Positions 16,652 to 56,707 are shown, counted from the first letter of the stretch. The stretch is 64,000 nt of DNA from Bdellovibrionales bacterium (GCA_965203095.1 OZ241877.1:480001-544000); one strand, 5' to 3'. Notes: generated from the sequence alone by a model not told the origin. Translations and numbers: made by a program.

Positions 16652-17597
16652 TAAATCACATCATAACTCAGGACACCGAGCAATGAATCTTATCAATAAA
16701 TGCGGTAAAAAGCACAGCTCTTTTGTGAAAAGTGAGTTGCCAAAAAAAACCAGACATATACTATATGTTGAAGACGCTGTAAGTTTTCTGAAGAAGATTC
16801 CGGATTCATCAGTTCAGTTGATACTTATTGATCCTCCATATAATCTTGAATTGGATGTATGGGATAAATTTGATAATTATCTGGAATGGGCTAAACAATG
16901 GCTGGATGAAATTTACAGGATTTTAAATACTTCAGGAAACTGTGTTATTTTTGGAGGCTTTCAATATCAGGATTTGAAAAAAGGTGATCTTTTGGAAATT
17001 TTGCATTACACAAGACATAATACAAAATTGCGATTTATAAATTTAATTGTTTGGTATTATAAAAACGGAATGTCTGCTCATCGGTTTTTTGCCAATAGAT
17101 ATGAAGAAATAATTTGGCTTTCAAAAACAAAACAGTATTATTTTGATCTTGATTCTGTCAGAGTTCCTTATAATTTTGAATCAAAACAAATAGCTTTAAG
17201 AGACAAAAGATTAAATCCTGATAATATTGAAAAGGGGAAAAATCCTACTAATGTGTGGGAAATACCCAGGTTGAATGGAAATTCAAAAGAAAGAGTAGGG
17301 CATCCAACACAGAAACCCTTGGAAGTGGTTAGAAGATTTGTAAAATCGCTTTCCTATCCTAATTCTTTGGTTTTAGATTTTTTTTCTGGTTCTGGAACAA
17401 CTGGTAGAGTGTGTATTGAGGAAGGAAGAAATAGCATTCTTGTTGATAATGATCTAAATTCAATAGAATACTTGAATAAACATATAAGGAAAGTTGGCAG
17501 AATGGGATTACCCTGTGATTTTGAAATACTGGACAATATACCTGTAAAAGATTTTATTGATAAACTGAAGCAGGAATTTGATGATGGTCATAAATAA
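16644..17597 (+). CDS. Beta-class N6-adenine DNA methyltransferase, M.RsrI-like
   Basis: DPPY, HPTQKP, DFFSGSGTT; SHHNSGHRAMN, NGMSAHRFFANR and RLNGNSKERVG resemble M.RsrI as recalled. Confidence 0.88.
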   Translation: MPNKSHHNSGHRAMNLINKCGKKHSSFVKSELPKKTRHILYVEDAVSFLKKIPDSSVQLILIDPPYNLELDVWDKFDNYLEWAKQWLDEIYRILNTSGNCVIFGGFQYQDLKKGDLLEILHYTRHNTKLRFINLIVWYYKNGMSAHRFFANRYEEIIWLSKTKQYYFDLDSVRVPYNFESKQIALRDKRLNPDNIEKGKNPTNVWEIPRLNGNSKERVGHPTQKPLEVVRRFVKSLSYPNSLVLDFFSGSGTTGRVCIEEGRNSILVDNDLNSIEYLNKHIRKVGRMGLPCDFEILDNIPVKDFIDKLKQEFDDGHK

Positions 17598-17610
17598 ACA
17601 AGGTAATAGA

Positions 17611-18156
17611 ATGAACGTTAAAAAAGAAAATTATTTAAAAGTTGGAAGTGATCCAAAGTATAGAAAATTAACTTGGGATGAAGAAAATACAAAATTTATA
17701 ACTGGTCCAAAAGAAGAAAAAGATCTCACCATTTCAGAATTAAGAAAAGAAATAGAGCCTTGGCTTACCGCTTTATTTCAAAGTGAGCGGTTAAACCTTT
17801 TGGTAGGGAGTGGACTCACCACTTCTCAGGAAATTCTTGCAACTGGAAAATCTACAAAATTCATGGAGTGTATGGATTTTGATGTGTTTTCTAATCAAAT
17901 AAAAAAAGCAGGAGTGAAGAAGGCCGAACAAGAGGGAAGGAAAGAGCTTAATATAGAAGATCAAATAAATATAGCAAATACTCTTTTAGAAGGATTAAAT
18001 ATTTATGTAGAAGATAATGGCACAGAAGCATTAAAAGGAGATATTGAGAAATTAAAAGAAAATATAAATAAAAATTTAGAGAACTTTATAAAAAAAACTC
18101 TCTATGTGGAAAAAACAATTATAAACAAAAAAAATAAGACAATACAATATCTAATA
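17611..18156 (+). pseudogene. Truncated SIR2-like protein (N-terminal part)
   Basis: EPWLTALFQSERLNLLVGSGLT and NIEDQI motifs; the TTNYD and later catalytic motifs are missing. Confidence 0.65.
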
Positions 18157-18449
18157 CCTTTTTACTTCATAGGATCACAAATGACAGGGATCAGGAGATG
18201 GTATCTCGTTTATTACCGGATAGTTTAAAAGGCACGATGCAGGAATTACCAGCTCTACCTTCTCGTCATGCTTATTTATTGGGATGGGCTTCAGAAATTC
18301 CCATTTTAACAAAAATATCTTATTTGCCGGAAAAAGCCAGACCTCAATCAGATGATCCCGATTTCTGGAAGGTATGGACAAGAGAAAAAGAAAGAACAAT
18401 TAATTGGAAAGCTATAGCAGATAAATGGCAGGGCAAAGACAAAGACTAA
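18153..18449 (+). pseudogene. C-terminal remnant of HerA-like ATPase
   Basis: Reading through from 18153: NTFLLHRITNDRDQEMVSRLLPDSL...LPALPSRHAYLLGWASE...RPQSDDPDFW; Walker motifs absent. Confidence 0.7.
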
Positions 18450-29241: not shown

Positions 29242-30210
29242 ATGTCTAAAAATTTTTCTACTGTCCTGCTCTTTTTTCTGGCTTTTGTGGCGATAGCCCT
29301 TGGTGGCTATCAATGTTCCACAAGGGTTTCCGATGGCAGTTCGCAAGTTTATCTTCCCATCGGCCATCAAGGGCCTCACAATTCTTATTCCCCTTCGGCT
29401 CCCTCTACTAAAAGTCCCTCTTCTTCCTCTTCAGACACTAAAGATTCTTTACCAAAGGAGCCCGATCAGGATTCAGCCTGCCCTCTTATAGAAAATAGTG
29501 GGAGTCATGGGACTATCGCTAATTTCCGGTTCAATCCTCCCAGTCTTGAGGATTTTCTCTTAGGTCGCAGATCAAATTTTGATATAAGATGCTCTCGGAT
29601 GATCCTTTCCATGAGCCAGCTTAACCCCTCTGCCGACAAACCCATATACAAAGGTCGGCTAATTTTAGCTTTTTATGGTGGTGGGGCGGGCTATTCAGGA
29701 CATCAGTTCCTATCTGGAACTACGGATAAAGAAAACAAAAACAACCATTGGGAAATCAAAGGCACTTGGAATACCAGTAAAAGAAAACCTGATATTTCTG
29801 GCAAAAAATTTTACTCTATTTTTGACAACGAAAAGGGAGCTATTATTTTAAAGTTAGAAGATGTTCGCACCAGGGAAGTCAAAGATGGGGAATTGGCCTA
29901 CTTGGCCGCGGGGGACATTTACTACAAAATGTTCCGGATATGGACAGGTGACAATGCCGACACTTGTTATAACAAAGGTATTTATGTCAGCCAAGCACAT
30001 AGTGCTCCATCTAAAGACGGAAGGTGCTGGTTAATAGGCTCTGGGCCTTTCAGTTGCTTGCCTACAGGCCCTCTTCCTCCTTCGGGAGGGCGATCGCCAC
30101 AGGCACCAGACATAGATATTAAAGGTTCCTTACCCTGTTATAGTCGCCTGGGTGAATTTTATAATTTGAATATAGAGAAGGCTTTTAACAGCTCTGTTGA
30201 TGACTTGTAA
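29242..30210 (+). CDS. Hypothetical exported protein / lipoprotein
   Basis: Signal peptide with YQC, Ser/Pro linker, Cys pairs. Confidence 0.75.
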   Translation: MSKNFSTVLLFFLAFVAIALGGYQCSTRVSDGSSQVYLPIGHQGPHNSYSPSAPSTKSPSSSSSDTKDSLPKEPDQDSACPLIENSGSHGTIANFRFNPPSLEDFLLGRRSNFDIRCSRMILSMSQLNPSADKPIYKGRLILAFYGGGAGYSGHQFLSGTTDKENKNNHWEIKGTWNTSKRKPDISGKKFYSIFDNEKGAIILKLEDVRTREVKDGELAYLAAGDIYYKMFRIWTGDNADTCYNKGIYVSQAHSAPSKDGRCWLIGSGPFSCLPTGPLPPSGGRSPQAPDIDIKGSLPCYSRLGEFYNLNIEKAFNSSVDDL

Positions 30211-30259
30211 ATCAATTTAACTGCTTTTTCATTATTAGCGAAAAGGCTAAGGAGGTTTT

Positions 30260-30844
30260 ATGTTTGATGTTTTAAAAAAAATTTTTGTTTTGTTGTCATT
30301 TTTTTTGCTTATTTCTTGTGACAGTAAATCAGGAGAAAGCACTACTGCCACTGGAGGGGTGGCGACCCCTCAACAACAACTTATTTTTTCAAAAACTTGC
30401 CCAGCTGGTTCTGTAAATGTCCATCATACTCCAAGCACTTTAACTACTGCGGGAACTGTAACTTTAGGTCAACTTCCTGTAGGGGCTAAAGTCAGCATTT
30501 CCGGAACCATTACTTCGGGAGGTTGTGGTCAAACCGGCCCTCTCACTTTCACCTGTTCCGCTGTTGTTCAGATCACTAACAATCGAGCTTATGTTTGTGA
30601 GAGTGGAACTATAAGCTCCTCTATTTTAACAGCGAGTGCTCAAACTGTTACGGCAGGGCAATCACCTGTGGCACCAGGGATTGTGCCTCAGCCCCGATCT
30701 TTTGTTGGAGGCTACTTTATGGTTTTTAATAACGGCACCAGCTTATTTGGCCGTATTGAATTGGGGCCTTCACAATGGATTCAAACAAACTGCCCGATAA
30801 GTTTTAATTGTGGTGTTGGTCAAGCTCCTTCTCTTGCTTTTTAA
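30260..30844 (+). CDS. Hypothetical lipoprotein
   Basis: LISC lipobox, RBS AAGGAGG, Thr/Gly-rich. Confidence 0.78.
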   Translation: MFDVLKKIFVLLSFFLLISCDSKSGESTTATGGVATPQQQLIFSKTCPAGSVNVHHTPSTLTTAGTVTLGQLPVGAKVSISGTITSGGCGQTGPLTFTCSAVVQITNNRAYVCESGTISSSILTASAQTVTAGQSPVAPGIVPQPRSFVGGYFMVFNNGTSLFGRIELGPSQWIQTNCPISFNCGVGQAPSLAF

Positions 30845-30912: not shown

Positions 30913-31773
30913 ATGCTTTTATATGAGGAGGATTTTTTAAGAGATCTGTTTCACCGTGGCTATTCTGAAAACACAGTCTCTGCTTACAAAAGGGACTTGG
31001 CCCGGTGGGAAGACTTTTGCCAATCTCGCCGGCCTGTTCAAGAATTTTATCGTTTTTTAACTAAAGAAAAACTGAGCTTAAGTTCTCAAGCCCGGGTGAT
31101 CAGTTGCGTCCGGAGCTATCTGAAGTTTTTGCAAAAGCGAGGGCAGACAGTAAAAGAGCTGAAATTTATGAGCCTTCCCCCTCTTAATCGCAAACTCCCT
31201 AAGCCTATCCGTTGGCAAGAATTTAAATCCTTATGGCGGGCTTGTGAGGGGAAAACAACAAGTCAATCAATTAGAAACCAACTGATTTTATCTTTTTTAT
31301 ATGGTTTGGGTTGCCGTGTGAGTGAGTTGGTGTCGCTCAATCTTCAGGACTTTAATGAGACAGAAGCTTGGATCAGCCTTATGGGCAAGGGGGGCCGTGA
31401 GAGGCTTTTGCCCTTGACAGGTCATCTCTATAAATTGCTCCTACTTTATTTGAAGGAATCTCGCCCTCACTTAGGGAAAGTGAGCCATCCCTCTTTATTT
31501 TTTAACAATAAGGGCCGGCGCCCCTCCAGAGTGGATATATGGCGTTGGTTAAAAGCATGGTCTTTAAAGGCGGGTTTTGAGGATGTGAAAAACCCTCACT
31601 CCTTCCGCCATGGTTGTGCCACAGGACTTTTAGAAAAAGGAGCTGACCTCAGAGCCATTCAAAAACTTTTAGGCCATTTGAGCATTCAAACCACACAAAT
31701 TTACACTTCTGTCAGTTCAAAAAAACTGAAAGAGGTTGTGGATGAGTTTCACCCTCTTTCACAAGCAAAATGA
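30913..31773 (+). CDS. XerC/XerD-family tyrosine recombinase
   Basis: YSENTVSAYKRDL, GCRVSEL, GKGGRER, PHSFRH, LLGH..IQTTQIYT (R-K-H-R-H-Y residues). Confidence 0.92.
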   Translation: MLLYEEDFLRDLFHRGYSENTVSAYKRDLARWEDFCQSRRPVQEFYRFLTKEKLSLSSQARVISCVRSYLKFLQKRGQTVKELKFMSLPPLNRKLPKPIRWQEFKSLWRACEGKTTSQSIRNQLILSFLYGLGCRVSELVSLNLQDFNETEAWISLMGKGGRERLLPLTGHLYKLLLLYLKESRPHLGKVSHPSLFFNNKGRRPSRVDIWRWLKAWSLKAGFEDVKNPHSFRHGCATGLLEKGADLRAIQKLLGHLSIQTTQIYTSVSSKKLKEVVDEFHPLSQAK

Positions 31774-32091
31774 TTTTTTTTAAAAAAGCCCTTCAAACTT
31801 TTTTATATTGATTCATGACACTTTAGGCTATGCCTGATATTAGCTAAAGTGTTGAAATGAATAGGAAAAATGTTTGAAAAACAAGCTCTAAAAGTGTCAT
31901 GAACTTTTAAATTTTTAGGCAAAATGAATTAAGCTCTAAAACTCTCTATTTTCCCCTCTAATCTATATCTATATTCCAGCATTCAAGACACAAACAAGCT
32001 TATTCTATCTGACATTTGAGCACTTTAAACAAAACTTATTTTTTAAAAAAAGTTGAGGCAGGAAAGCCAAGTTTCTCAATATCAAAATAAT

Positions 32092-33063
32092 TTAATCAAT
32101 CAGGTCATATTTTCGTAAAAGTTCAAGGTGTTCCTCATCTGAAGTGACAGCGTCCAGTTCTTCCTGAAATTTTCTGCTTATCTCTGCATCACGGGCATCC
32201 TTCTCTTCTACAAAGTGATTCAGATCATTAAATATTACATCTAACTCATCGTAAGCTTTTTTAATAATCGGAATTATTTCCTCCTCAAGTAAATCATTAT
32301 ACTCTTGACAATCCGGCAAAGCATCCCTGCAAGATCTTTTGTTTAAAAGGGAGAGCCTCTCCCCCTCTAATGGCAAAAGGGCTTGGGCGGAATCTTTTAA
32401 CACCTGACAAGCTGATTGATAAAACCGGTAGAGCTCTTCTATAAAATAATCTTTCATTGGTAGGGAGAGGCAACGGTTGGCATGCTCAATGGTTTTTTCC
32501 AAACTGTCCTCAGTATATAAATTGTAAGTGGGGTAAGTGTTTAAATTCCTCTCCCCATTGTAATTAGGAGATTGCATTAAATATAAATTATAAATGCCTT
32601 CAGCTCCTGATCCAAACTTATCAAAGTAAGTCATAGGGACCTGATAATGGGAGTTCAGCTCCATCTGGTCTGTTTGCTCATGCCAGAGCAGGACAGTATC
32701 AAAATTTTGGCCATTAAATCGAGGATAGTCAAAAGTCCCTTCAATTAAAGATATTACCCGGAGATAAGCCACTATAGTTTCATTCAATTGCTCATAATCC
32801 CTTGTTCCATAATTCCATTGGTGTTGAATGTATTTGGCCATATAAAAAGCACCAGGGATATAGCCTTGATTGTCCAGATCTTGAATAAAAGCTAAAGCCT
32901 TTTCTTTACCCCCGTTAAAGATAAGGCAATGAGCATAATTCATCATATCAGCTTTAGATTCCGGAGAATAATGATATTCTTCCTCCCATTCCTGACAAGC
33001 CGGATTGGCATAAGCATTTAAAGTGAACCCTATCATCATAAAAATCAATATTCTAAAAAACAT
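32092..33063 (-). CDS. Secreted Sel1/TPR-like helical protein, array member 5
   Basis: Signal peptide ending AYA; KEKALAFIQDLDNQGYIPGAFYMAKY resembles a Sel1-like repeat; paralog of four neighbours. Confidence 0.85.
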   Translation of the reverse strand: MFFRILIFMMIGFTLNAYANPACQEWEEEYHYSPESKADMMNYAHCLIFNGGKEKALAFIQDLDNQGYIPGAFYMAKYIQHQWNYGTRDYEQLNETIVAYLRVISLIEGTFDYPRFNGQNFDTVLLWHEQTDQMELNSHYQVPMTYFDKFGSGAEGIYNLYLMQSPNYNGERNLNTYPTYNLYTEDSLEKTIEHANRCLSLPMKDYFIEELYRFYQSACQVLKDSAQALLPLEGERLSLLNKRSCRDALPDCQEYNDLLEEEIIPIIKKAYDELDVIFNDLNHFVEEKDARDAEISRKFQEELDAVTSDEEHLELLRKYDLID

Positions 33064-33098
33064 AAATCCTCCTTATTTTTATGCTTTAATATGAGACA

Positions 33099-33127
33099 TT
33101 TATAACTAAAAACAGGCTAAAAGTCAA
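33099..33127 (-). promoter_or_regulatory. Sigma70-type promoter repeated before every array gene
   Basis: TTGACT-17 nt-TATAAA on the minus strand; also at 34186-34214, 35303-35331, 36380-36408 and 37463-37491; RBS AAGGAGG follows. Confidence 0.75.
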
Positions 33128-33184
33128 GTTTTAACCTGCTGAACCTTTAAACAAAACCTGTTTTTTTAAAAAAAGATTGAACTT

Positions 33185-34144
33185 CTATGAGATTTCACAA
33201 GTAAATTCATCAGTTAGGATTATTCCCTGCTCATCAAAAAGTCTTTGTCTTCTTTCAAGTTCTGCCTCTAAGCAAGCATCCTTCTTTTCTAAAAAGCGAC
33301 TCAGATCGTCAAATATCACATCCAATTCATCGTAAGCTTGATGAACAATTGAAGTCATTCTTCCATCAGCCAAGTCATTATACTCTTGACAGTCAGGCAA
33401 AGTATCCCTGCAAGACCTTTTGTTTAAAAGGGATAGCCTTTCCCTCTCTAATGGCAAAAGGGCTTGGGCAGAATCTTTTAATACCTGACAGGCCGATTGA
33501 TAAAACTGGTAGACCTCCTCTATAAAATAATCTTTCATCGGTAGGGAAAGGCAACGGTTGGCATGCTCAATGGTTTTTTCCAAACTGTCCTCAGTATATA
33601 AATTGTAAGTGGGGGAAGTGTTTAAATTCCTCTCCCCATTGTAATTAGAGGATTGCATTAAATATAAATTATAAATGCCTGTAGCTCCTTCTATAAACTT
33701 ATCGAAGTAAGATACAGCAACTTGATAATGGGAGTTCAGTTCTATACTGTCTGTTTGCTCATACCAAAGCAGAGCACCATCAAAGCCCTGACTACTAAAC
33801 ATGGGGTAATCAAAAGCCCCTTCAATTAAAGATATTACCCGGAGATAAGCCATTATAATTTCATCTAAACGATCATAATCCCTTGTTCCAAAATTCCATT
33901 CGTTATGAATGTATTTGGCCATATAAAAAGCCCCAGGGATATAGCCTCGATTGTCCAGGTCTTGAATAAAAACTAAAGCCTTTTCTTTATCCCCGTTAAA
34001 GATAAGGCAATGAGCATAATTCATAGAAGTAGCATTATGTTCCGGATGAGCATGATATGCTTGCTCTACTACCGAACAAGATGGATTGGCATAAGCATTT
34101 AAAGTAAAAATCATCATCATCAAAGTTAAAAGCTTTAAAAACAT
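33185..34144 (-). CDS. Secreted Sel1/TPR-like helical protein, array member 4
   Basis: Paralog; N-terminal block identical to member 1. Confidence 0.85.
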   Translation of the reverse strand: MFLKLLTLMMMIFTLNAYANPSCSVVEQAYHAHPEHNATSMNYAHCLIFNGDKEKALVFIQDLDNRGYIPGAFYMAKYIHNEWNFGTRDYDRLDEIIMAYLRVISLIEGAFDYPMFSSQGFDGALLWYEQTDSIELNSHYQVAVSYFDKFIEGATGIYNLYLMQSSNYNGERNLNTSPTYNLYTEDSLEKTIEHANRCLSLPMKDYFIEEVYQFYQSACQVLKDSAQALLPLERERLSLLNKRSCRDTLPDCQEYNDLADGRMTSIVHQAYDELDVIFDDLSRFLEKKDACLEAELERRQRLFDEQGIILTDEFTCEIS

Positions 34145-34295
34145 AAATCCTCCTTATTTTTATGCTTTAATATGAATATGAAACATTTATAACTAAAAAT
34201 AGGCTAAAAGTCAAGTTTTAACCTGCTGAACCTTTAAACAAAACCTGTTTTTTAAAAAAACTGAGGCAAGCCAAAGTTCTCAATATCAAAATAAT

Positions 34296-35267
34296 TTAAT
34301 CAATCAGGTCATATTTTCGTAAAAGTTCAAGGTGTTCCTCATCTGAAGTGACAGCGTCCAGTTCTTCCTGAAATTTTCTGCTTATCTCTGCATCACGGGC
34401 TTCCTTCTCTTCAAAAAAGCGATTCAGATCGTCAAATATTATATCCAATTCATCATGAGTTTCTCCAATAATCGGAAACATTTTCTCTTTAACCAATTCA
34501 TCATACTCTTGACAATTCGGCAAAGCACTCCTGCAAGACCTTTTGTTTAAAAGGGAGAGCCTCTCCCCCTCTAATGGCAAAAGGGCTTGGGCAGAATCTT
34601 TTAATACCTGACAGGCTGATTGATAAAACCGGTAGGCTTCCTCTATAAAATAATCTTTCATCGGTAGGGAAAGGCAACGGTTGGCATGCTCAATGGTTTT
34701 TTCCAAACTGTCCTCAGTATATAAATTGTAAGCGGGGTAAGTGTTTAAATCCCTCTCCCCACTGTAATTAGAAGATTGCATTAAATATAAATTATAAATA
34801 CCTGCCGCTCCTTTTTTAAACTTATGAAAGTAAGTCATAGGGACCCGATAATGAGAACTCAGCTCCATCTGGTCTTTTCTCTCATGCCAGAGCAGGACAG
34901 TATCAAAATTTTGGCCATTAAATCGGGGATAGTCATAAGTCCCTTCAATTAAAGATATTACCCGGAGATAAGCCACTATAGTTTCATTTAAACGCTCATA
35001 ATCCCTTGTTCCATAATTCCATCTGTGCTGAATGTATTTGGCCATATAAAAAACCCCAGGAATATAACCTTGTCTGTCAAGCTGTTGGATAAAAGCTAAA
35101 GCCTTTTCTTTATCCCCGTTAAAGATAAGGCAACGGGCATAACCCATAACATCCGGGAGATAATCTGGAGAATAATGATATTCTTCCTCCCATTCCCGAC
35201 AGGCTGGGTTTGCATAAGCATTTAAAGTAAAAATCATCATCATCAAGGTTAAGAACTTTAAAAACAT
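34296..35267 (-). CDS. Secreted Sel1/TPR-like helical protein, array member 3
   Basis: Paralog; C-terminal tail shared with member 5. Confidence 0.85.
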   Translation of the reverse strand: MFLKFLTLMMMIFTLNAYANPACREWEEEYHYSPDYLPDVMGYARCLIFNGDKEKALAFIQQLDRQGYIPGVFYMAKYIQHRWNYGTRDYERLNETIVAYLRVISLIEGTYDYPRFNGQNFDTVLLWHERKDQMELSSHYRVPMTYFHKFKKGAAGIYNLYLMQSSNYSGERDLNTYPAYNLYTEDSLEKTIEHANRCLSLPMKDYFIEEAYRFYQSACQVLKDSAQALLPLEGERLSLLNKRSCRSALPNCQEYDELVKEKMFPIIGETHDELDIIFDDLNRFFEEKEARDAEISRKFQEELDAVTSDEEHLELLRKYDLID

Positions 35268-35384
35268 AAATCCTCCTTATTTTTATGCTTTAATATGAAA
35301 CATTTATAACTAAAAACAGGCTAAAAGTCAAGTTTTAACCTACTGAACCTTTAAACAAAACTTATTTTTAAAAAAAACGAATTT

Positions 35385-36344
35385 CTATGATATATCACAA
35401 GTAAATTCATCAGTTACGATTATTCCCTGCTCATCAAAAAGTCTTTGTCTTCTTTCAAGTTCTGCCTCTAAGCAAGCATCCTTCTTTTCTAAAAAGTGAT
35501 TCAGATCATTAAATATTACATCTAACTCATCGTAAGCTTTTTTAATAATCGGAATTATTTCCTCCTCAAGTAAATCATTATACTCTTGACAATCCGGCAA
35601 AGCATCCCTGCAAGATCTTTTGTTTAAAAGGGATAGCCTCTCCCCCTCTAATGGCAAAAGGGCTTGGGCGGAATCTTTTAACACCTGGCAGGCCGATTGA
35701 TAAAACCTATAGACCTCCTCTATAAAATAATCTTTCATCGGTAGGGAAAGGCAACGGTTGGCATGTTCAATGGTTTTTTCCAAACTGTCCTCAGTATATA
35801 AATTGTAAGTGGGGTAAGTGTTTAAATTCCTCTCCCCATTGTAATTAGGAGATTGCATTAAATATAAATTATAAATGCCTTCAGCTCCTGATCCAAACTT
35901 ATCAAAGTAAGTCATAGGGACCTGATAATGGGAGTTCAGTTCTATACTGTCTGTTTGCTCATACCAAAGCAGAGCACCATCAAAGCCCTGACTACTAAAC
36001 ATGGGGTAATCAAAAGCCCCTTCAATTAAAGATATTACCCGGAGATAAGCCACTATAGTTTCATCTAAACGATCATAATCCCTTGTTCCATAATTCCATT
36101 CGTTATGAATGTATTTGGCCATATAAAAAGCCCCAGGGATATAGCCTTGTCTGTCAAGCTGTTGGATAAAACCCAAAGCTTTTTCTTTATCTCCTTCAGA
36201 AATGAGGCAAAAAGCATAACCCATAACATCCGGGAGATAATCTGGGGAATGATGATATTCTTCCTCCCATTCCTGACAAGCCGTATTGGCATAAGCATTT
36301 AAAGTAAAAATCATCATCATCAAAGTTAAGAACTTAAAAAACAT
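35385..36344 (-). CDS. Secreted Sel1/TPR-like helical protein, array member 2
   Basis: Paralog; mosaic of blocks found in members 1, 3, 4 and 5. Confidence 0.85.
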   Translation of the reverse strand: MFFKFLTLMMMIFTLNAYANTACQEWEEEYHHSPDYLPDVMGYAFCLISEGDKEKALGFIQQLDRQGYIPGAFYMAKYIHNEWNYGTRDYDRLDETIVAYLRVISLIEGAFDYPMFSSQGFDGALLWYEQTDSIELNSHYQVPMTYFDKFGSGAEGIYNLYLMQSPNYNGERNLNTYPTYNLYTEDSLEKTIEHANRCLSLPMKDYFIEEVYRFYQSACQVLKDSAQALLPLEGERLSLLNKRSCRDALPDCQEYNDLLEEEIIPIIKKAYDELDVIFNDLNHFLEKKDACLEAELERRQRLFDEQGIIVTDEFTCDIS

Positions 36345-36461
36345 AAATCCTCCTTATTTTTATGCCTCAATATGAAACATTTATAACTAAAAACAGGCTA
36401 AAAGTCAAGTTTTAACCTACTGAACCTTTAAACAAAACTTGTTTTTTAAAAAAACGAATTT

Positions 36462-37421
36462 CTATGATATATCACAAGTAAATTCATCAGTTAGGATTAT
36501 TCCCTGCTCATCAAAAAGTCTTTGTCTTCTTTCAAGTTCTGCCTCTAAGCAAGCATCCTTCTTTTCTAAAAAGTGATTCAGATCATTAAATATTACATCC
36601 AATTTATTAAGAGTTCTATTGACAATAGGGACCATCTCCCCTTGGAGAAGATCATTATATTCCTCACAGTTAGTCAAGTCCCCTTGGCAAGATCTTTTGT
36701 TTAAAAAGGATAGCCTCTCCCCCTCTAATGGCAGAAGGGCTTGGGCAGAATCTTTTAATACCTGACAGGCTGATTGATAAAACCGGTAGACCTCTTCTAT
36801 AAAATAATCTTTCATCGGTAGGGAAAGGCAACGGTTGGCATGTTCAATGGTTTTTTCCAAACTGTCCTCAGTATATAAATTGTAAGTGGGGTAAGTGTTT
36901 AAATCCCTCCCTCCACTATAATTAGGAGATTGCATTAAATATAAATTATGAGCACCGTTAGCCCCTTTTGTAAATTTATTGAAATAAGACACAGAGACAT
37001 TATAATAGGAGCTCAACTCCATACTGTCTGTTTGCTCATACCAGAGCAGAGCACCATCAAAATTTTGGCCATTAAATTGGGGATAGTCATAAGCCCTTTC
37101 AATTAAAGAGATTACCCGGAGATAAGCCACTATAGTCTCATTTAAACGATCATAATCTCTTGTTTCAAAAGTCCCTCCAGTTTGAATGTGTTTGGCCATA
37201 TAAAAAGCCCCAGGGATATAGCCTCGATTGTCCAGGTCTTGAATAAAAACTAAAGCCTTTTCTTTATCCCCGTTAAAGATAAGGCAATGAGCATAATTCA
37301 TAGAAGTAGCATTATGTTCCGGATGAGCATGATATGCTTGCTCTACTACCGAACAAGATGGATTGGCATAAGCATTTAAAGTAAAAATCATCATCATCAA
37401 AGTTAAAAGCTTTAAAAACAT
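36462..37421 (-). CDS. Secreted Sel1/TPR-like helical protein, array member 1
   Basis: Paralog; most divergent middle segments. Confidence 0.85.
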   Translation of the reverse strand: MFLKLLTLMMMIFTLNAYANPSCSVVEQAYHAHPEHNATSMNYAHCLIFNGDKEKALVFIQDLDNRGYIPGAFYMAKHIQTGGTFETRDYDRLNETIVAYLRVISLIERAYDYPQFNGQNFDGALLWYEQTDSMELSSYYNVSVSYFNKFTKGANGAHNLYLMQSPNYSGGRDLNTYPTYNLYTEDSLEKTIEHANRCLSLPMKDYFIEEVYRFYQSACQVLKDSAQALLPLEGERLSFLNKRSCQGDLTNCEEYNDLLQGEMVPIVNRTLNKLDVIFNDLNHFLEKKDACLEAELERRQRLFDEQGIILTDEFTCDIS

Positions 37422-37625
37422 AAATCCTCCTTATTTTTATGCTTTAATATGAATATGAAACATTTATAACTAAAAATAGGCTAAAAGTCAAGTTTTAGCC
37501 TACTGAACCTTTAAACAAAACCTGTTTTTTAAAAAAACTGTTTAAAGATTGAACAGTTTTTTAATTAAATAATTTTCCTGAAATTATAGCATGAACAAAA
37601 CTTTAGTGTTGAGAGCCAGGATATC

Positions 37626-37646
37626 TGGATTCCCGTTTTCACGGGA
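37626..37646. repeat. REP/dRS3-like palindrome (family C)
   Basis: TGGATTCCCGTTTTCACGGGA, reverse complement of the TCCCGnnnnnCGGGAATCC pattern. Confidence 0.65.
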
Positions 37647-37686
37647 GCTAAAAAGCTTGGGGAGCTTTTGGGCAAAGAAATTAAAT

Positions 37687-37937
37687 AGTCGTCCGTGAAA
37701 AAGTCTCAGTTAGTCCTTCTCATTCTCTGCTTTTACAGGGGCAAGCTTTTCAATTGCTTTTGCCTAAAGGCCGTCCCATGAGGGTCCAAGGTATTGCCGT
37801 CCCGAAATGCTGTGGCCTTTGGGCAAATAAACTAAAAAGTCCTCTGTAAACTATTGCACAAGCAAAATCCCTGGTGAGGGGCCAAGGTATTTTTTGCTCA
37901 AAATGGGATAGCCTTTAGATAAAGAAACTAAAAAATA
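37687..37937. repeat. Two adjacent family B repeat copies
   Basis: CCGTGAAAAA end; TGAGGGTCCAAGGTATT at about 37779 and TGAGGGGCCAAGGTATT at about 37875; GCACAAGCAAAA shared with the 19665 copy. Confidence 0.7.
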
Positions 37938-38074
37938 GTGCTTTTAGATAAAAAAATAAAAAAAAGCTTGAGATTTTTTCTCAAACTGTTAGGATGTAAG
38001 TCCGTTTAAGTCTTAAGTAAATCTCAAAGAGGTGGCTGAAAATGACTTCAAAACATAAAAACAGGGAGGAAAAC

Positions 38075-40423
38075 ATGAAACTCAATATAAAAAAAACCGT
38101 ATTTTTATTTCCCCTTATTTTGATGGGGATCGGGGGCTTATCTTTTTGGGCTAGTAATGCCAACAATAACAGCAATCCCTTTGGATCTGGAGGTAGTGAT
38201 CACTCTCCCACAACAAGTAGTCGTAATATAAGCAATCAATACCAAAGTTTTGTGGATACAGAGTTGAGCGAACATTTTGGTCAAATTGCCCATCCTCAAG
38301 CGGGGCGATCCAGTTATTATTTTAATGCTCACCTTCCGGCAAGTGTGGCCTTTCAAAAAGCTTGCCCAAATAATTACAATTCTTTTAGAACAGCTATGTT
38401 GAATTACAATAAGGCAAGATCTGTGGAGAACCAAAAAACATCGGAGCGAAGCATCCGCAATTCCAGAAACAGCTGTGCTGGAACTATTTTTGATAGTTTC
38501 AACAATATTTATCAGTTGGCAATGAGTCCCTCTATCCAAAGGTTTAAATCTGTTTCTGAAGTGCGAGCAGATATGACAGCTCCATCAGCTCTTCAAAATT
38601 TATGGCCACCTTTTTCAGAATGGGATAAATTTTATGCTGAATGTGTCGAAAAAGCCCAGGGAGCCTTTTATGGGCATGGAAGAACAAGCCGTTATCCAGG
38701 CCAAGCCTCACTTCGTGACTTCGGTTCCAAATTATCCGAGTTAAAACAAGCCGGCTGTTTTGAACAGCAAGAAAAATTCACATCCTTTTTTGAATCTTTA
38801 GATGAATTGTATAAAAAAGCAGAACAATCCTGCCGGGACCCTCAAAGACCTTGTATCGCTACTCTATCATCTAAAATAAATCTCAATTCAGAAAACTCTT
38901 TATTTAAAACCTGCCTATCTCAAACAAAAGAGGTGGAGAGTTGTTGTGCTGGGGCGGGTTGTGAGTATTTTTCCAATGAGGAAGTGATGAGTAAATACAA
39001 CTCCCAAGTCCAACCTTTTTTATCCACTGGAAACAATACTGCGGGAAACACTGCTGGCAGTGGTAATATGTGCCAAGCAAATAGCCCTGCATTTCAAAGG
39101 TCAAAGTCTGGTATTTTGTCTCAGTTAAATGATATATGCAAGGATTCTACCGATAAATGTGCTGAAAACTGTTTGTCCGAGTTAGAAGATTTTAAAAGAG
39201 ATTTTCTTTCTTGTTTTGCCCTTCATAGTGTGGAGGCTATGGCTATGCACGAAGGAGAGCTTGTAAGTAGCTCTGGGAGAGCTTATCAACAAAGTAGCTC
39301 CCAGTGTGAACAACCTTTAAAAAAACTGAGGCTTGAGTTCAGTAAGGCAGTGGCACAAGTTTGGCCTTTGTCTGATAGGAAGGATATTAGCTTGGCCCTA
39401 TCATCAGAGGCTTTGTCATCGTCAAAAAGTCCTTTTTTGTCGGCTTGTGATAAACCCTATAATGATTTAAAAACTTCAGAGTCTATGAGGTTAGCTAAGG
39501 TGGGTGGTATATTCCAGCAATCTTGTTCGGCCTTAGGGGGAGGTTCTTTTACTCAGGCCAATAATCTTCCTACTTCTACTACTCCAGGTTCTTCAGGAGG
39601 AGAGGATACTTCTTCAGGAACGGATAATTCTAATAACAGATATCCGAGTTCAGTTTCTGCTTCAGGTGCTTTGCCTTCTGGTCCTGTTGTTCAGGAGAAT
39701 ACTGTTGAGGGTTCTAATAGTAAAGAGCATGATGAGGAGATTGCTTTATTGTTGGAAGAAGGGGTTTTAACAGAGGAGCAACTTAAGATTTATCATCCGG
39801 AGGATATTAAGAATATTAAGGAGTATGCTCGAGAGCAAAGGGCTAAGAGGTTTGATCCTTTAGGTGGTTGGGCTCAAGGGACGAGGAGTGTGAATCCTTT
39901 GGTTAAGGGGGCTACGGCTCGGAGGCTTGAGAGGCAAGCGAAGGAGCGGAGGAGAAGAATAGCGAATGAGAATATATCGGAGAAGTTTAACAGGTGGATA
40001 GATGAGGCTCCTGATAGGATTGAGGATTTTAAGAGTGCGATTTCTGCGGCGAAGGAGAAGGCAGTGGAGCGTCGTGATGATGTTTGGAGGTTTGTGGATC
40101 GGACTTATGAGGATGTGACCGGTGGTAAGGAGTTTCCTTTTCCTCCACCTTTGAGGTTGAGGGATTGTATTCCTATGAACATTCAGCCAAAGGCGAATAT
40201 ATTGACATTACATGAGTATTTGGTGAGGGAGGTGGTTTGTAAGAGGAAGCTTGTTGAGTGTAGGAAGGATTTGCCGGAGGTGGATTGGGAGGCCAGAGGT
40301 TTGGATTTAAGCAAGCTTAAGGAACACACTCCGTTTAAGATTACGGATCGCCGTTGTCCTAATTACAAGGAGGAGTTAAGAGATGTGGATAGAATGTCTA
40401 TCGACCCTGTTCAAGATGAATAA
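38075..40423 (+). CDS. Large secreted Cys-rich hypothetical protein
   Basis: ATG after GGAGG at 38075, signal peptide, many Cys, Ser/Thr linker, charged C-terminal domain. Confidence 0.82.
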   Translation: MKLNIKKTVFLFPLILMGIGGLSFWASNANNNSNPFGSGGSDHSPTTSSRNISNQYQSFVDTELSEHFGQIAHPQAGRSSYYFNAHLPASVAFQKACPNNYNSFRTAMLNYNKARSVENQKTSERSIRNSRNSCAGTIFDSFNNIYQLAMSPSIQRFKSVSEVRADMTAPSALQNLWPPFSEWDKFYAECVEKAQGAFYGHGRTSRYPGQASLRDFGSKLSELKQAGCFEQQEKFTSFFESLDELYKKAEQSCRDPQRPCIATLSSKINLNSENSLFKTCLSQTKEVESCCAGAGCEYFSNEEVMSKYNSQVQPFLSTGNNTAGNTAGSGNMCQANSPAFQRSKSGILSQLNDICKDSTDKCAENCLSELEDFKRDFLSCFALHSVEAMAMHEGELVSSSGRAYQQSSSQCEQPLKKLRLEFSKAVAQVWPLSDRKDISLALSSEALSSSKSPFLSACDKPYNDLKTSESMRLAKVGGIFQQSCSALGGGSFTQANNLPTSTTPGSSGGEDTSSGTDNSNNRYPSSVSASGALPSGPVVQENTVEGSNSKEHDEEIALLLEEGVLTEEQLKIYHPEDIKNIKEYAREQRAKRFDPLGGWAQGTRSVNPLVKGATARRLERQAKERRRRIANENISEKFNRWIDEAPDRIEDFKSAISAAKEKAVERRDDVWRFVDRTYEDVTGGKEFPFPPPLRLRDCIPMNIQPKANILTLHEYLVREVVCKRKLVECRKDLPEVDWEARGLDLSKLKEHTPFKITDRRCPNYKEELRDVDRMSIDPVQDE

Positions 40424-49578: not shown

Positions 49579-52329
49579 TTATTTAATCTTTAAAATCTTA
49601 TTTATAATTTTATGAACTTTCTGACCAGTTTCATCTTGTGAAATAGCAAACCGCCAAGCTCCGTTTTCCTCATCTTGATTAACAGCTTTAACCCATGTCT
49701 TCATATAATTCCACTTGGATTCATCTTTTGGCTTTTCGACTCCTTTAACTTCAAGAATAAGATGGCTTTTGTCTGAGAGACGAACAATAAAATCAGGAAT
49801 ATAACTATGTAAAGCTCCATTATGAACATATTTTATTTCAAAACCCAGGTGATCATTTTTTGCCCAAGCTTTAACATGTGGATTTCTGTCCAACTCTCTG
49901 GCATGAGCCAATTCCCAAGCACTATCCACAACACATCTGTTAATGTGTGTTTTTTTAAATATATCTGTTTTTTTACCAGTCCGCCATTGTAAAACTTCTT
50001 TTGTTGATCGGTATTTTGGATTTTTATAAAGAAGAGAAATATCCTCTTGATTCTGATGGTTAATAGCAGAAAAAACTTTTCTCACAATTTGCTCCATCCC
50101 CATCATAATAGCAATTTTCTTTTTTATTTCATTTTCTTGAAAAGATTTGGGCTTTATTTGAAATTTATCAGAATTTAAAAATTCCTCCACAATTTGGATC
50201 AGTTGAGAGAAAGCACAATCTTTATTTATTTTGCTTTTCCAATTGGGATTTATTTGATCATAAACATTGGAGGCAACAGTAAATAAAAGGCTTTGCATGC
50301 GAACATTTTTGTCTTTGATAAGCTTTTCCAGATCTATGGTTTTTATTTGTTCATAACTTGGCTGACCGTTAATTTCAGGAGCTAAATCGGCAATTTTTCT
50401 AACTTTAGATATTTCTAAAGGCTTTATTTTCTCAAAATCTACTGTCAAAACTGGTTTTAGCTCAAAATCAATCCTTTCCACATTAGGCCAAGTGATTTTA
50501 TATTTTTCTTTTTCCGGATCAGGAAAAATAGCAAGCTTTGGGGAGGCCGGACGGGGATCGCCTCCTTGAACCTCCTCTTGTGGAATAAAAGAAAAGGGAA
50601 TGCCAAAAATATTTACATATTCCGGATCAAAAAAACCTTTTTCATTTAGCTCATAAGAAGTTCGCCTTAGTCCTCGGCCCACAACTTGCTCGCATAACAG
50701 CTGACTGGAAAAGGCTCTCAAACCCATAATATGAGTCACAGTCTGACAATTCCAACCTTCAGTGAGCATAGCAACAGAAATAATATGCCTTAACTGCTCT
50801 CCCGGCTTTCCCTCTTGACCGGCAGTGTTGACTTTTTCCCGTAGCTCTTTCATTTTTTTGTCTTTGTCTTCAATAAAATCCAGATCAGAATAAATAAGGG
50901 CAGTTGTTTCCTCTTTACAAAGCTCTGGAATGACAATTCTTTTTTTCTCAAACATATATTTTACTCTGTCGGCTGTCTCTTTTCTGTTTACAGCTGAAAT
51001 CATCACCGGAGGAGTGGGCATTTTTTCCTTTTGCCAATGTGTTAAAGTTTTTTCCCAATCATGAGCCAAAAGCAAATAGCCATTTCTCACTAACTCAGGA
51101 AGTATCTCTGTCGGCTGAGATCCCTTTCTGTTTAAGTTGGACTTAACATCCTCATCATTGTAAATATGATAAAGTTTTGATCTATAACTTTCAGGATCTA
51201 TGGGGCCATCATCCCGGACCACAAAGCGAGGAGTCTTTGTCAAACCCGACTCCACAGCATCCATTAAGCCAAAATCGCTAACTATCCAATCAAACAGGTC
51301 CTCCTTATAAGAGGCTTTGCCTTTTGTGCCAGAAGGAGCAAAGGGAGTAGCTGAAAAATCAAGGCAAGTTAATATACCGTTTACTTTATGGATTCGGTCC
51401 AGCCCTTGGACCCAACAAGTGGCTCTTTCTTTCTCATTTTTATCAATGCCTTTTTGTTTTTCCTCGCTTCTATGTCTCCAAGCATGATGAGCTTCATCGT
51501 TAATAATGAGAATATTTTTTGCTTGAGCCATATCGCATAAAACATCTTTGATATAAACTCTGTCGCTTTTTGGCCCTCTTTTATCGACAGTTTTTTTCTT
51601 TAGCAAAGCCTCCTCACTATCCCACATAAGAGTATGCCAGTTTTCAATAAGGACTTTCCCTTGTCTTAATAGAGGAAATAGATCATAAGGAATAATTTTT
51701 TTCTCTTCATAATAATTATTTTTGTCTTTAAAATCTAAAACAGAGAGACGATTCTTAACAGTTAAATTGGGAGCAACAATAAACACATGTTTTGAAAAGC
51801 GAGTGTCTTTAGGGTAAGAGACTTTATTTAAAACCTGCCAAGCAATGCTCATAGCCATTACATAAGTTTTGCCTGTGCCGGTGGCCATTTTCGTGCAAAG
51901 TCTTTCAAAACTCCCTCCGTCTTTTGGAATTTCAATGCCTGTTGATTCCGAGGCATGAGCCTCTTTAAGCCAAATCAAAGTTTCTATAGCTTCTTTTTGA
52001 CAAAAGAAAAACTCAAAATCCCGTCCATCCGCGTTTTTGCTATTCCAAAACTTCAACAGGCTTTTTGTGATTCCTGTCACTCCCGGATAGCCCTTGTCTC
52101 GCCATGATTTCACTCTAAGGCGGATCTTATTTGCTAAGGGAAGTTCAATAAAATCTCCAACCTCTTGGTATTTTTTGCTCTGGGAGGCAATCACATAACC
52201 AGCGGGCCTTCGTCCCGCTTTTATAAAATGCTTGCCTTTAGTTTTATCAAAATCCCAATGTTGTTCTGGTTCTTCAAAAGGGGAGTTTATAATTAGCCTG
52301 TCAATTTTTTCTTTAAAAATTGTTTTCAT
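49579..52329 (-). CDS. Type III restriction enzyme Res subunit
   Basis: MATGTGKT, DEAHH, SATP, EGWN, QVVGRGLRR; C-terminal YIPDF...LILEVKG nuclease. Confidence 0.92.
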   Translation of the reverse strand: MKTIFKEKIDRLIINSPFEEPEQHWDFDKTKGKHFIKAGRRPAGYVIASQSKKYQEVGDFIELPLANKIRLRVKSWRDKGYPGVTGITKSLLKFWNSKNADGRDFEFFFCQKEAIETLIWLKEAHASESTGIEIPKDGGSFERLCTKMATGTGKTYVMAMSIAWQVLNKVSYPKDTRFSKHVFIVAPNLTVKNRLSVLDFKDKNNYYEEKKIIPYDLFPLLRQGKVLIENWHTLMWDSEEALLKKKTVDKRGPKSDRVYIKDVLCDMAQAKNILIINDEAHHAWRHRSEEKQKGIDKNEKERATCWVQGLDRIHKVNGILTCLDFSATPFAPSGTKGKASYKEDLFDWIVSDFGLMDAVESGLTKTPRFVVRDDGPIDPESYRSKLYHIYNDEDVKSNLNRKGSQPTEILPELVRNGYLLLAHDWEKTLTHWQKEKMPTPPVMISAVNRKETADRVKYMFEKKRIVIPELCKEETTALIYSDLDFIEDKDKKMKELREKVNTAGQEGKPGEQLRHIISVAMLTEGWNCQTVTHIMGLRAFSSQLLCEQVVGRGLRRTSYELNEKGFFDPEYVNIFGIPFSFIPQEEVQGGDPRPASPKLAIFPDPEKEKYKITWPNVERIDFELKPVLTVDFEKIKPLEISKVRKIADLAPEINGQPSYEQIKTIDLEKLIKDKNVRMQSLLFTVASNVYDQINPNWKSKINKDCAFSQLIQIVEEFLNSDKFQIKPKSFQENEIKKKIAIMMGMEQIVRKVFSAINHQNQEDISLLYKNPKYRSTKEVLQWRTGKKTDIFKKTHINRCVVDSAWELAHARELDRNPHVKAWAKNDHLGFEIKYVHNGALHSYIPDFIVRLSDKSHLILEVKGVEKPKDESKWNYMKTWVKAVNQDEENGAWRFAISQDETGQKVHKIINKILKIK

Positions 52330-52386
52330 TTAGTTTGTTCCTTTGCTGTTTATTTTAAATTTAGTTGTTCTGATTTTGTTATTCTT

Positions 52387-53169
52387 TTAACTGGCCAACC
52401 TCTTAATATCCTTTACTCCTTCTTGATTAAAATCAGTTAGATTTGGGTATTGTTTGTCTGAGTTTCTGGTAAGATATATAAGCTCTCTATTGCCTAAATT
52501 CTGCATATCCTTATGCACTGCCAAACTAATAAATAAAAGTTCTGCTTTTTTAAATTCCAATAAAGCAATAGCTGTGTCTTTTGCTTTGTTGCTTTCAAGA
52601 ATCCCAAATACATAGAACTTTCGGGTTTTCCAGTTTAAAGACCAATCTACTTTAAAGACAGAAGTTTCTTTTTCCTCTTGATTATCTGAAAGAGGAGTCA
52701 CATCAGGCTGTGGATTAAATTCTTCCAGTTCTTTTAAAACAAAGTTTTGCAAGTCTTTATAAAAAGTGGATTTAGCTGTCTCTCTGCTCCAATAATCCAT
52801 ACTACAAACTTTTTGTGCACAACCTGCAAACTGAAAAACACTCTCATAAATTTTATCGACAGGAGCATCTAAATAAAGATTTCCATTGTCATTTTGAACG
52901 CCATTGTTAAACAAGATGCTATTAAAGATTTTTTTCTTTGAGATGGTGTTCAGCTCATAGCTGTAAGAGAGACGCTGTCCAGCCATGCCAAAATCGCATA
53001 TCCGAACATATCCAGCCCCTTTAGGGCTTTCCTGCAAATAAATATCCACCATATCCCCATCCTCATGCAAGATAGGAATTGTCAGCTGGTATTTGCCTGG
53101 GCGACGCTCGTAAACACTAAAGCTTGGCCGGACTTTGTTTAATATGTTTAATATGTTTTTAATGTTCAT
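52387..53169 (-). CDS. DUF1828-like domain protein
   Basis: IPILHEDGDMVDIYL...RICDFG pattern; C-terminal restriction-like fold residues. Confidence 0.7.
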   Translation of the reverse strand: MNIKNILNILNKVRPSFSVYERRPGKYQLTIPILHEDGDMVDIYLQESPKGAGYVRICDFGMAGQRLSYSYELNTISKKKIFNSILFNNGVQNDNGNLYLDAPVDKIYESVFQFAGCAQKVCSMDYWSRETAKSTFYKDLQNFVLKELEEFNPQPDVTPLSDNQEEKETSVFKVDWSLNWKTRKFYVFGILESNKAKDTAIALLEFKKAELLFISLAVHKDMQNLGNRELIYLTRNSDKQYPNLTDFNQEGVKDIKRLAS

Positions 53170-53719: not shown

Positions 53720-53858
53720 TTTTTGCTTTCTCCATAATATATTTTATCATATAACTTTTCTATTTTGGTTTAAAATTTTACAGACTTAAGTCCAAATTAT
53801 ACCCATTATGACATTCCTCAAAAATGGCTAAAAAAGCTCTTCCTTTTGGGTATAAACA

Positions 53859-56321: not shown

Positions 56322-56623
56322 TAGAGTCTCCTTGACTTTGAATTTAAAATCGGAATATTCTGTAATAAACTTTAATAAATTTTATAAGCATAAAGTCTTG
56401 TTTTATTCAGGATTAACCTTAATTTGGAATTATTGAACTGATTTTCTAAGGTTCTTATCGTAAAAAAACGATAAACAGGACTAATGTCAAGTTTTATTTA
56501 TTTAAAAATCGTTTTATTATTAAAGCTTTATCAGGACTTTATAATGTCATCAAAAAATAAGGCAACATTTTTTTTGGCAAAATAAAGTTTGACATTATGA
56601 AGAACCACTTTTGCAGGAGGCAA

Positions 56624-56700: not shown

Positions 56701-56707
56701 AATATCT

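Follow-up and report, generated by a model that had tools for sequence, protein, structure and literature searches.

The stretch of Bdellovibrionales DNA analyzed here (GCA_965203095.1, OZ241877.1:480001-544000; 64,000 nt in full, referred to below as the window, with positions counted from its first letter) contains a tandem array of five co-directional minus-strand genes, W1 to W5, which are spaced by 117 to 151 nt and encode proteins with 69 to 82% identity to the first copy and a mean column identity of 84% in the protein alignment (Table 1). An earlier description of this DNA, made without database searches (here, the original prediction), had reported five paralogs of 319 to 323 aa as a candidate combinatorial diversification system, and all five open reading frames (ORFs) were found in place. 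Divergently from the array lies a gene for a large cysteine-rich protein, which that description had missed and which is newly noticed here as a conserved putative partner of the small genes.

The variable blocks of the five small proteins are shared in several different combinations. In the protein alignment, NPSCSVVEQAYHAHPEH is common to W1 and W4, PDYLPDVMGYA to W2 and W3, PMFSSQGFDGALL to W2 and W4, PRFNGQNFDTVLLWHE to W3 and W5, and both QVPMTYFDKFGSGAEG and NDLLEEEIIPIIKKAY to W2 and W5; the proteins end in the tail DACLEAELERRQ in W1, W2, and W4 and in the tail DAEISRKFQEEL in W3 and W5, and conserved blocks lie between the variable ones, all as the original prediction had described. 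The duplication that it had reported in the leader region of W1 and W4 is likewise real (TTCATA, present twice on the coding strand), and this 6-nt duplication recurs in copy A1 of a second array elsewhere in the genome (array A). Its contention that no single duplication tree could produce such a pattern was borne out, since trees built block by block reject each other in the approximately unbiased (AU) test (see below).

The genome is represented by a 1.78-Mb contig (C1) and a 17-kb contig, and a whole-genome search recovered 11 full-length copies of the small gene and one 31-aa stub, distributed over three tandem arrays. The 11 copies are all intact and all different from one another. They carry one of two tail types, in the order I-I-II-I-II in the window array, I-II-II-II in array A, and I-II in array B, so that the first gene of each array is of type I (with two extra Cys) and the last is of type II; the order looks as if a two-gene unit like array B had expanded from within. 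The stub (C1:208518-208613), a putative deletion remnant whose promoter and leader are intact, closes array A. Outside this genome, tail type I is found in a protein with 59% identity that is encoded on a 1.4-kb contig of another source; a word-indexed protein search returned only this protein and the copies of the genome itself, and a search of genome contigs with the family alignment gave 174 pattern matches, none of which was confirmed.

Table 1. Coordinates of the small-gene array, its spacer units, and the associated features (window positions, or positions on contig C1 where marked)
Feature	Coordinates	Strand	Basis and remarks
W1, first gene of the array, 319 aa	36462..37421	-	ORF and alignment; tail type I, two extra Cys
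W2, 319 aa	35385..36344	-	ORF and alignment; tail type I; paralog used for modeling
W3, 323 aa	34296..35267	-	ORF and alignment; tail type II
W4, 319 aa	33185..34144	-	ORF and alignment; tail type I
W5, last gene of the array, 323 aa	32092..33063	-	ORF and alignment; tail type II
Spacer and W1 leader	37422..37545	-	Read from DNA alignments
Equivalent unit of W2	36345-36461	-	
Equivalent unit of W3	35268-35384	-	
Equivalent unit of W4	34145-34295	-	
Equivalent unit of W5	33064-33184	-	
Array end	32020..32091	-	DNA alignment; start of a further spacer (T/A tract, GTTTTGTTTAAAG) retained, then similarity ends
Gene for 793-aa cysteine-rich protein	38042..40423	+	Divergent from the array; three genome copies, each heading an array
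Window array			Genome search; 5 copies (W1-W5)
Array A	C1:204081-208613		4 copies and a stub
Array B	C1:1593492-1595540		2 copies

One of the recombination tests that the original prediction had proposed, the pairwise homoplasy index (PHI), was decisive. For the five window genes (157 informative sites), the index was 0.229 versus 0.407 ± 0.008 in 2,000 permutations (z = -21; P ≤ 0.0005), and for all eleven genes, it was 0.366 versus 0.652 (z = -41; P ≤ 0.0005), with minimum recombination counts (Rmin) of 29 and 51, respectively. For 43 of the 55 pairs of genes, none of 1,000 site permutations gave an identical run at polymorphic sites as long as the longest one observed. When maximum-likelihood (ML) trees of five segments of the 11 genes were compared by the AU test, the data of segments 1, 2, 4, and 5 rejected all four foreign trees (p-AU ≤ 2 × 10−4), and the data of the conserved central segment rejected two of the four. 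Identical tracts of at least 90 nt number 54 among the 11 genes, versus 0.6 in column shuffles, the longest being 482, 285, 239, and 231 nt. They connect copies within one array as well as between arrays that are hundreds of kilobases apart, and 37 of the 54 join different arrays; therefore, exchange is not restricted to neighbors. W1 equals W4 over gene nt 1 to 231, W2 equals W5 over nt 406 to 578 and 712 to 852, and W3 has identical tracts with B1, B2, A2, and A4; the shared tracts as a whole span the range from perfectly identical to slightly diverged.

Because conserved blocks alone could give long identical runs, site rates were kept in place in simulations on the ML trees. For the eleven genes, 43 tracts were counted in gap-free columns, versus a mean of 2.1 (maximum, 8) in 100 simulations, and the fraction of four-gamete-incompatible site pairs was 0.61, versus 0.38 (maximum, 0.48). 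The five window genes gave 8 tracts of at least 90 nt versus a mean of 0.01 (maximum, 1) and a fraction of incompatible pairs of 0.44 versus 0.22 (maximum, 0.34) in 200 simulations. The locus thus combines the features of a recombining tandem paralog array, namely, tandem non-identical copies, homology blocks, and a statistical signal of exchange. Segmental exchange between paralogs, by gene conversion and/or unequal crossover as the original prediction had it, is the only reading that fits the PHI, run-length, AU, tract, and simulation results, and we hold it with high confidence.

Diversity is kept, not erased, in the variable segments. Three segments are near uniform (promoter/leader, nt 286 to 330, and nt 471 to 735; mean pairwise difference, ~0.05); the variable segments exist in four to seven distinct versions each (nucleotide diversity [pi], 0.13 to 0.27; pairwise maximum, 0.47), which occur in nearly free combination. 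The mean proportions of synonymous (pS) and nonsynonymous (pN) differences between the small genes are 0.24 and 0.11, and pN/pS is 0.45 overall. In codon windows, the ratio rises to ~0.9 (codons 31 to 45, 76 to 105, and 256 to 270) and never exceeds 1, and we therefore do not claim positive selection. The central block has a pN of 0 to 0.03 despite a pS of 0.12 to 0.34, which argues for purifying selection on this part rather than mere homogenization.

The small proteins start with a short positive stretch and a hydrophobic stretch that ends in AYA followed by N, which we read as a putative Sec leader directly from the sequence rather than from the output of a predictor. An alignment of 28 family members, drawn from seven genomes and one metagenome contig, shows six invariant Cys; with this leader and these Cys, the proteins look exported, in line with the secretion that the original prediction had proposed. 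An AlphaFold2 (AF2) model of W2 (mean predicted local distance difference test [pLDDT] score, 81.4; predicted template modeling [pTM] score, 0.79) is all helical, with 12 helices arranged as short hairpins at residues 21 to 109 and long helices at 134 to 164, 183 to 199, 209 to 241, and 253 to 306. The mapping of the variable blocks onto a predicted structure, as the original prediction had suggested, showed that variable residues are absent or scarce in the two central helices (0 of 17 and 4 of 33) and make up most of the first helix (8 of 12) and of the C-terminal helix (38 of 54), with others in several loops. The central helices (residues 183 to 241) are also the most conserved part across species. 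Two pairs of Cys, and only two, are placed by the model on partner helices, namely, Cys23/Cys46 in helices 21 to 32 and 37 to 49 and Cys198/Cys219 in helices 183 to 199 and 209 to 241.

Searches of Pfam, NCBIfam, PDB sequences, Foldseek, VIA-align, and a protein atlas gave no secure family for this protein, just as the original prediction had recognized none. The Sel1 model of Pfam (PF08238) has no match at E ≤ 1 in the five window proteins, all of which therefore fall short of its gathering score; TPR_19 has sub-threshold matches in three of the five (E = 0.003 to 0.007; 17 to 18 bits versus a cut-off of 25). The best hits in Foldseek against the PDB and in the PDB sequence search had E values of 0.08 and 0.42, respectively. 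The Sel1-like fold is a right-handed superhelix of repeated helix-turn-helix units of 36 to 44 residues, and the hairpins of the model are at residues 21 to 109. VIA-align gave Z scores of 9.3 (4bwr; root mean square deviation, 3.5; 123 residues aligned), 9.2 (6deh), and 9.1 (6onw) and a higher one to designed helix bundles (Z = 10.9), and scores of 9 to 11 to designed bundles and some Sel1-repeat and TPR proteins are in a range common for helical models. In the protein atlas, the nearest entries were Campylobacterota clusters automatically named "beta-lactamase" and Sel1 clusters (0.92; 166 shared features against a guide value of 170). Of the "Sel1/TPR-like" label of the original prediction, the Sel1 part thus finds no sequence hit in the five window proteins and the fold no significant match, and the TPR part is weakly supported by the sub-threshold TPR_19 hits; as a description, the label fairly fits the N-terminal third of the protein and no more.

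Each spacer unit shows the same order of elements, namely, a T/A tract, a palindrome, a 17-nt gap, a -10-like TATAAA, and a Shine-Dalgarno (SD) sequence, AAGGAGG, 6 nt before the ATG. In the unit of W1, the palindrome is AGGCTAAAA-CTTGAC-TTTTAGCCT, enclosing a -35-like TTGACT (37486-37491), with TATAAA at 37463-37468 and AAGGAGG at 37426-37432; the 6-nt duplication also lies within this unit. The 11 spacer/promoter units of the genome differ by a mean of only 0.047 in pairwise comparisons, and from their alignment we read the unit as a promoter with putative -35-like and -10-like boxes. A consensus promoter scan, which accepts only T at position 6 of the -10 hexamer, did not list these spacer sites for that reason; in two of the five spacers, the same scan called the palindrome terminator-like. 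The palindrome may be a terminator of the upstream gene, an operator, or both. In some copies, it is changed on both arms (window 37477-37502 and equivalents in all spacers; e.g., CAAGTT...AGCTTG in B1 versus CAGGTT...AGCCTG), which hints that a hairpin or a dimer-binding site is kept. The length of the T/A tract also varies between copies (T7A6, T8A5, and T7A7; 33155-33173, 34241-34263, 35365-35384, 36435-36461, and 37521-37543), and such differences could tune the expression of single copies.

The large gene is present as copies of 790 to 795 aa, divergently transcribed, at the head of all three arrays. The three copies are 93.8 to 96.8% identical and fully identical over the last ~250 residues, with a pS of 0.04 to 0.08 and a pN of 0.02 to 0.03, versus the mean pS of 0.24 for the small genes. 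The encoded protein carries a hydrophobic anchor or signal at its N terminus, followed by a helical region (residues ~62 to 500), an S/T/G-rich low-complexity linker, and a charged C-terminal part; about 22 Cys are present, 16 of which are invariant across species. It has no Pfam match better than E = 0.12 and no NCBIfam match, its AF2 model is poor (mean pLDDT, 52), the best Z score of 7.1 in a fold search amounts to noise, and the atlas search returned no usable match. A complex prediction for residues 62 to 500 with the mature small protein, run without controls, scored 0.00 and carries no weight for or against binding. The gap between W1 and the large gene is 620 nt (719 and 402 nt in the other two modules) and includes dispersed repeats (37620-37860), the core of which (~37742-37840) is matched about 90 times by blastn within the genome; contig depth there reaches 311 to 839 in public sequencing runs X1 to X3 and 186 in run X4, compared with tens elsewhere, and loose ends are numerous. 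These repeats are probably of the hairpin/MITE (miniature inverted-repeat transposable element) type.

A query with a single small protein found the family in six of nine other genomes of the genus and in none of 31 genomes from other genera within the family and order, and a family profile found it in none of 150 further genomes of the order. Among the genomes searched, the family is thus found only in one genus, where four species have it in multiple, mosaic copies. When 1.84 billion representative proteins were searched with a profile, 268 clusters were recovered at E ≤ 0.001, 211 of them at E ≤ 10−10 and 103 at E ≤ 10−30, and the ten clusters that were looked up were all without a name. 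When 30 representatives of the family were compared with Pfam, 8 had weak TPR- or Sel1-type matches, one of them at the cut-off; these matches include one to Sel1 (19.3 bits; cut-off, 30.7) and one to TPR_19 (25.5 bits). One representative is fused to a peptidoglycan-binding domain, and another is fused to an FGE-sulfatase domain. In a family tree, the paralogs group by genome in all eight sources. PHI is also significant in three other species of the genus, in the genomes here designated G002 (12 genes; z = -28), G007 (6 genes; z = -21), and G009 (8 genes; z = -15), the assemblies of which are independent and consist of one or two contigs each; mosaicism is therefore a property of the family and not of one assembly.

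The large gene accompanies the small ones in relatives as well. In G002, six large genes are each placed head to head with a small gene or array, and these modules account for 11 of 13 full-length small genes of that genome. The five large genes of G007 share the strand of its six small genes and follow immediately after all of them. The persistence of this adjacency despite the different orientations speaks for a functional link between the large and small genes. The large copies resemble each other more closely than the small copies do in each of three genomes compared (amino acid identity, 95 versus 80% in G000, 93 versus 77% in G002, and 86.5 versus 77% in G007). No large-gene match was found in G008, the ORFs interleaved with the small genes of G009 show no kinship to the large protein (hhalign probability, 0.6%), and there is no conserved ORF between the tandem copies of G002. 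These G002 copies (C1:170900-175800) are 540 to 840 nt apart, with spacers far longer than those of the window array.

We favor, at a probability of roughly 0.6, the reading that the 11 genes form a family with exchanged variable segments and that a repertoire of helical binding proteins, exported and disulfide bridged, is likely sustained by this exchange and would work with the ~790-aa protein, the repertoire, the partner role, and the binding function being what we infer from the above patterns. RecA-type homologous recombination would start in the three near-uniform segments, gene conversion would copy or swap the variable segment lying between conserved ones, and unequal crossover between adjacent units would alter the length of the array; scars of this process would be the stub that closes array A and the incomplete spacer with which the window array ends. 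At the protein level, the invariant central helices would offer a constant docking face, possibly for the neighboring large protein, and contacts with varying ligands would be made by the N-terminal hairpins, the loops, and the long C-terminal helix, which are variable. Every copy is of full length and is preceded by promoter-like and ribosome-binding sequences of its own, which argues for a coexpressible repertoire rather than one-at-a-time switching. RecA, MutS, and MutL are present in the genome, so that general homologous recombination suffices, and since no dedicated recombinase, long inverted repeats, or silent cassettes were found, ordinary homologous recombination is the best-supported driver. 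The "diversification system" of the original prediction, taken as dedicated machinery, is accordingly not supported.

Several observations weigh against this reading of an exported, partnered repertoire. MutS and MutL are intact and should restrain exchange between copies that differ by 10 to 20%. The failure of pN/pS to exceed 1 is a further difficulty, as relaxed constraint in the most variable blocks would look alike. Linkage to the large gene is imperfect, with two small genes in G002 lacking a large neighbor and a weak association in G009, where a single large-gene hit was obtained at E = 2 × 10−4. The large protein may be anchored in the inner membrane; if it stays there, the two proteins would constitute a periplasmic pair, which argues against the outward recognition of prey or hosts that the original prediction had suggested as an example. 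Finally, the order and phasing of the arrays are taken from the assembly.

Among the alternatives, the one that survives best, although we consider it unlikely, is that these are immunity-gene arrays, in which small periplasmic proteins neutralize variants of an exported toxin, either the neighboring large protein or toxins from competitors, and recombination renews the repertoire. The large exported protein without an assigned function that adjoins the small genes would suit this role, and the relative fused to a peptidoglycan-binding domain fits a periplasmic location. Against it, the large protein has no recognizable toxin, secretion-marker, or enzymatic domain, and its copies are near identical while the small proteins vary, which is the opposite of the covariation of toxin and immunity proteins within a genome. 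In G007, moreover, the small gene is upstream of the large one, an arrangement that is unusual for immunity genes.

The closest anatomical parallels bear on the same alternative. As described in the available part of the source (PMC9484751), the tandem immunity-gene arrays esaG of Staphylococcus aureus and tipC of Streptococcus and the lpl lipoprotein cluster of S. aureus recombine through homology blocks, yielding chimeras and changes in copy number. The present arrays resemble these clusters, as far as that account goes, in their tandem non-identical paralogs, in the high-identity blocks between variable parts, and in the larger partner gene at the head of the cluster, an anatomy that speaks for the immunity interpretation. 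They differ in belonging to an unrelated family in a Gram-negative host, with export leaders and conserved Cys, in the neighboring protein, which is near invariant and has no known toxin domain, and in exchange that spans three distant arrays. The PldB immunity proteins PA5086 to PA5088 of Pseudomonas aeruginosa offer a second parallel, in that several paralogs are encoded with one large exported protein, which, in the portion of the report available (PMC13736854), all three bind through Sel1-like repeats. PldB itself is there a phospholipase D delivered by a type VI system, unlike the large protein here, which has no enzyme domain; no TssC was found in the present genome, which is 90% complete.

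A second alternative, which we regard as improbable, is neutral concerted evolution, in which the family was amplified within the lineage, conversion tracts are a by-product, the copies are redundant, and the mosaic is non-adaptive. The grouping of paralogs by genome, a pN/pS below 1 everywhere, and the lack of any dedicated machinery found are all as it would predict, and the stub that ends array A shows that copies also decay. Homogenization is, however, very uneven, with a pi of 0.05 in promoters and conserved blocks versus up to 0.27 (pairwise maximum, 0.47) in the variable blocks, and decay has not touched the 11 copies, which are all intact and all different. The large genes, which are under the same recombination regime, are 3 to 6 times less diverged at synonymous sites, and the same picture is seen in three more species.

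It is very unlikely that the mosaics are an artifact of assembly or polishing, i.e., chimeras made from mixed reads of similar copies. Such an origin would be in keeping with the occurrence of these proteins in one assembly only and with the shortness of the contig pieces from public runs that could be placed on the array (about 130 to 280 nt, none bridging a gene, as run contigs break into pieces of about 100 to 300 nt there), which leaves array order and phasing as they stand in the assembly. Yet contigs of 1.78 Mb and 17 kb are not expected from short reads across three such arrays, the shared tracts grade from identical to slightly diverged, the same signal is present in the three independent assemblies of other species, and 133 of the 174 pieces of run X1 placed on the array match at ≥99%. 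One contig of this run, which joins 36251 to 32971 (body of W2 to head of W5), was not counted, as only 4 of its bases are unambiguous. The other letters seen in run contigs at the arrays were left uninterpreted, the other two arrays being a possible source, and run X5 (from another study and labeled as a sponge metagenome), with low-depth pieces that are mostly 88 to 99% alike, was not used as habitat evidence.

Programmed variation, whether by a dedicated recombinase or shufflon-like inversion or by one expression site fed by silent cassettes, is very improbable: although a gene for a XerD/XerC-like recombinase (30913-31773) lies 320 nt past the array end, it scores as an ordinary Xer protein (253 bits versus an equivalog cut-off of 329.6) and is found beside one of the three arrays only, arrays A and B having no recombinase neighbor, the copies all have the same orientation, the only inverted repeats are the 24- to 28-nt promoter palindromes, and in place of one expression locus with promoterless partial donors, there are 11 full-length copies, each with promoter-like and SD sequences, the only partial copy being the stub, which keeps its 5' end.

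The repertoire reading can be set beside other known variable families. Opa proteins of Neisseria are outer-membrane beta-barrels switched through frameshifts in a pentamer repeat of the leader, unlike the all-helical proteins of the present tandem arrays, whose leader repeat is only an in-frame run of ATG triplets; no frameshift-prone repeat of the Opa kind was found in the leaders, and all 11 frames are open. In systems of the pilE/pilS type, transfer is one way, from promoterless partial copies to a single expression site, unlike the present arrays, in which every copy is complete with its own expression signals. The likeness to pilE/pilS cassette variation lies in the segmental gene conversion that builds mosaics from a stock of variants, as far as the available text describes it (PMC3899283). 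The opa genes, which number about ten per genome, are full length and potentially expressed at each locus, and have semivariable and hypervariable regions, resemble the present family, in the parts of the sources at hand (PMC13183285 and PMC2265424), in their many complete and separately expressible loci, in the presence of identical or near-identical copies in a genome, and in a diversity far above the genome average. A structural parallel is the slr/Hcp family of Helicobacter, which the accessible portion of its description (PMC1941758) presents as an expanded, lineage-specific, secreted family of helical-hairpin proteins that is rich in Cys bridging the two helices of a hairpin and evolves faster than housekeeping genes. 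Each of the two Cys pairs of the W2 model sits on the two helices of a hairpin, modeled positions that are reminiscent of the bridged hairpins of Hcp. The present proteins differ in having no Sel1 match in Pfam and in being hairpin-repeat-like in the N-terminal third alone, the rest being a long-helix bundle; Hcp genes are dispersed and, in that portion of the source, are not described as block mosaics.

The family described here is thus unnamed and is of a known evolutionary behavior, as in surface antigen and toxin-immunity gene families. Recombination within a multigene family is a classic sign that the encoded proteins face a partner that changes, be it a host, prey, competitor, or phage, and if the organism depends on other cells, both the small and the large proteins would be good candidates for mediating this dependence. 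The arrays also provide a clean natural example of exchange between distant loci with mismatch repair intact. A bolder version of the favored reading, which we put forward as speculative and rather doubtful, is that the two families constitute a two-part exported recognition device of one reduced-genome genus, with a constant cysteine-rich scaffold and interchangeable helical adaptors whose contact surfaces are reshuffled among the three arrays; if true, it would generate combinatorial binding specificities for the cells on which the organism lives or against molecules that come from them.

Three other regions of the window contain genes of potential note. Between tilS and the Xer-like gene (29242-30844) lie two ORFs (322 and 194 aa) that have hydrophobic leaders and match no family. 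A low-GC island (13922-18228; 0.30 to 0.32 versus ~0.40 around it) encodes a 909-aa protein of the helicase/restriction type, whose RadD-like and EcoAI R-subunit-like matches fall far short of the cut-offs, and two ORFs follow it. A defense-type cluster (49579-59986) encodes an 820-aa protein with a methyltransferase part, a 1,092-aa SNF2/DrmD-like helicase with a PLD-like anti-phage match, and a restriction endonuclease of the BPTD_3080 family that scores above the cut-off (967 bits).

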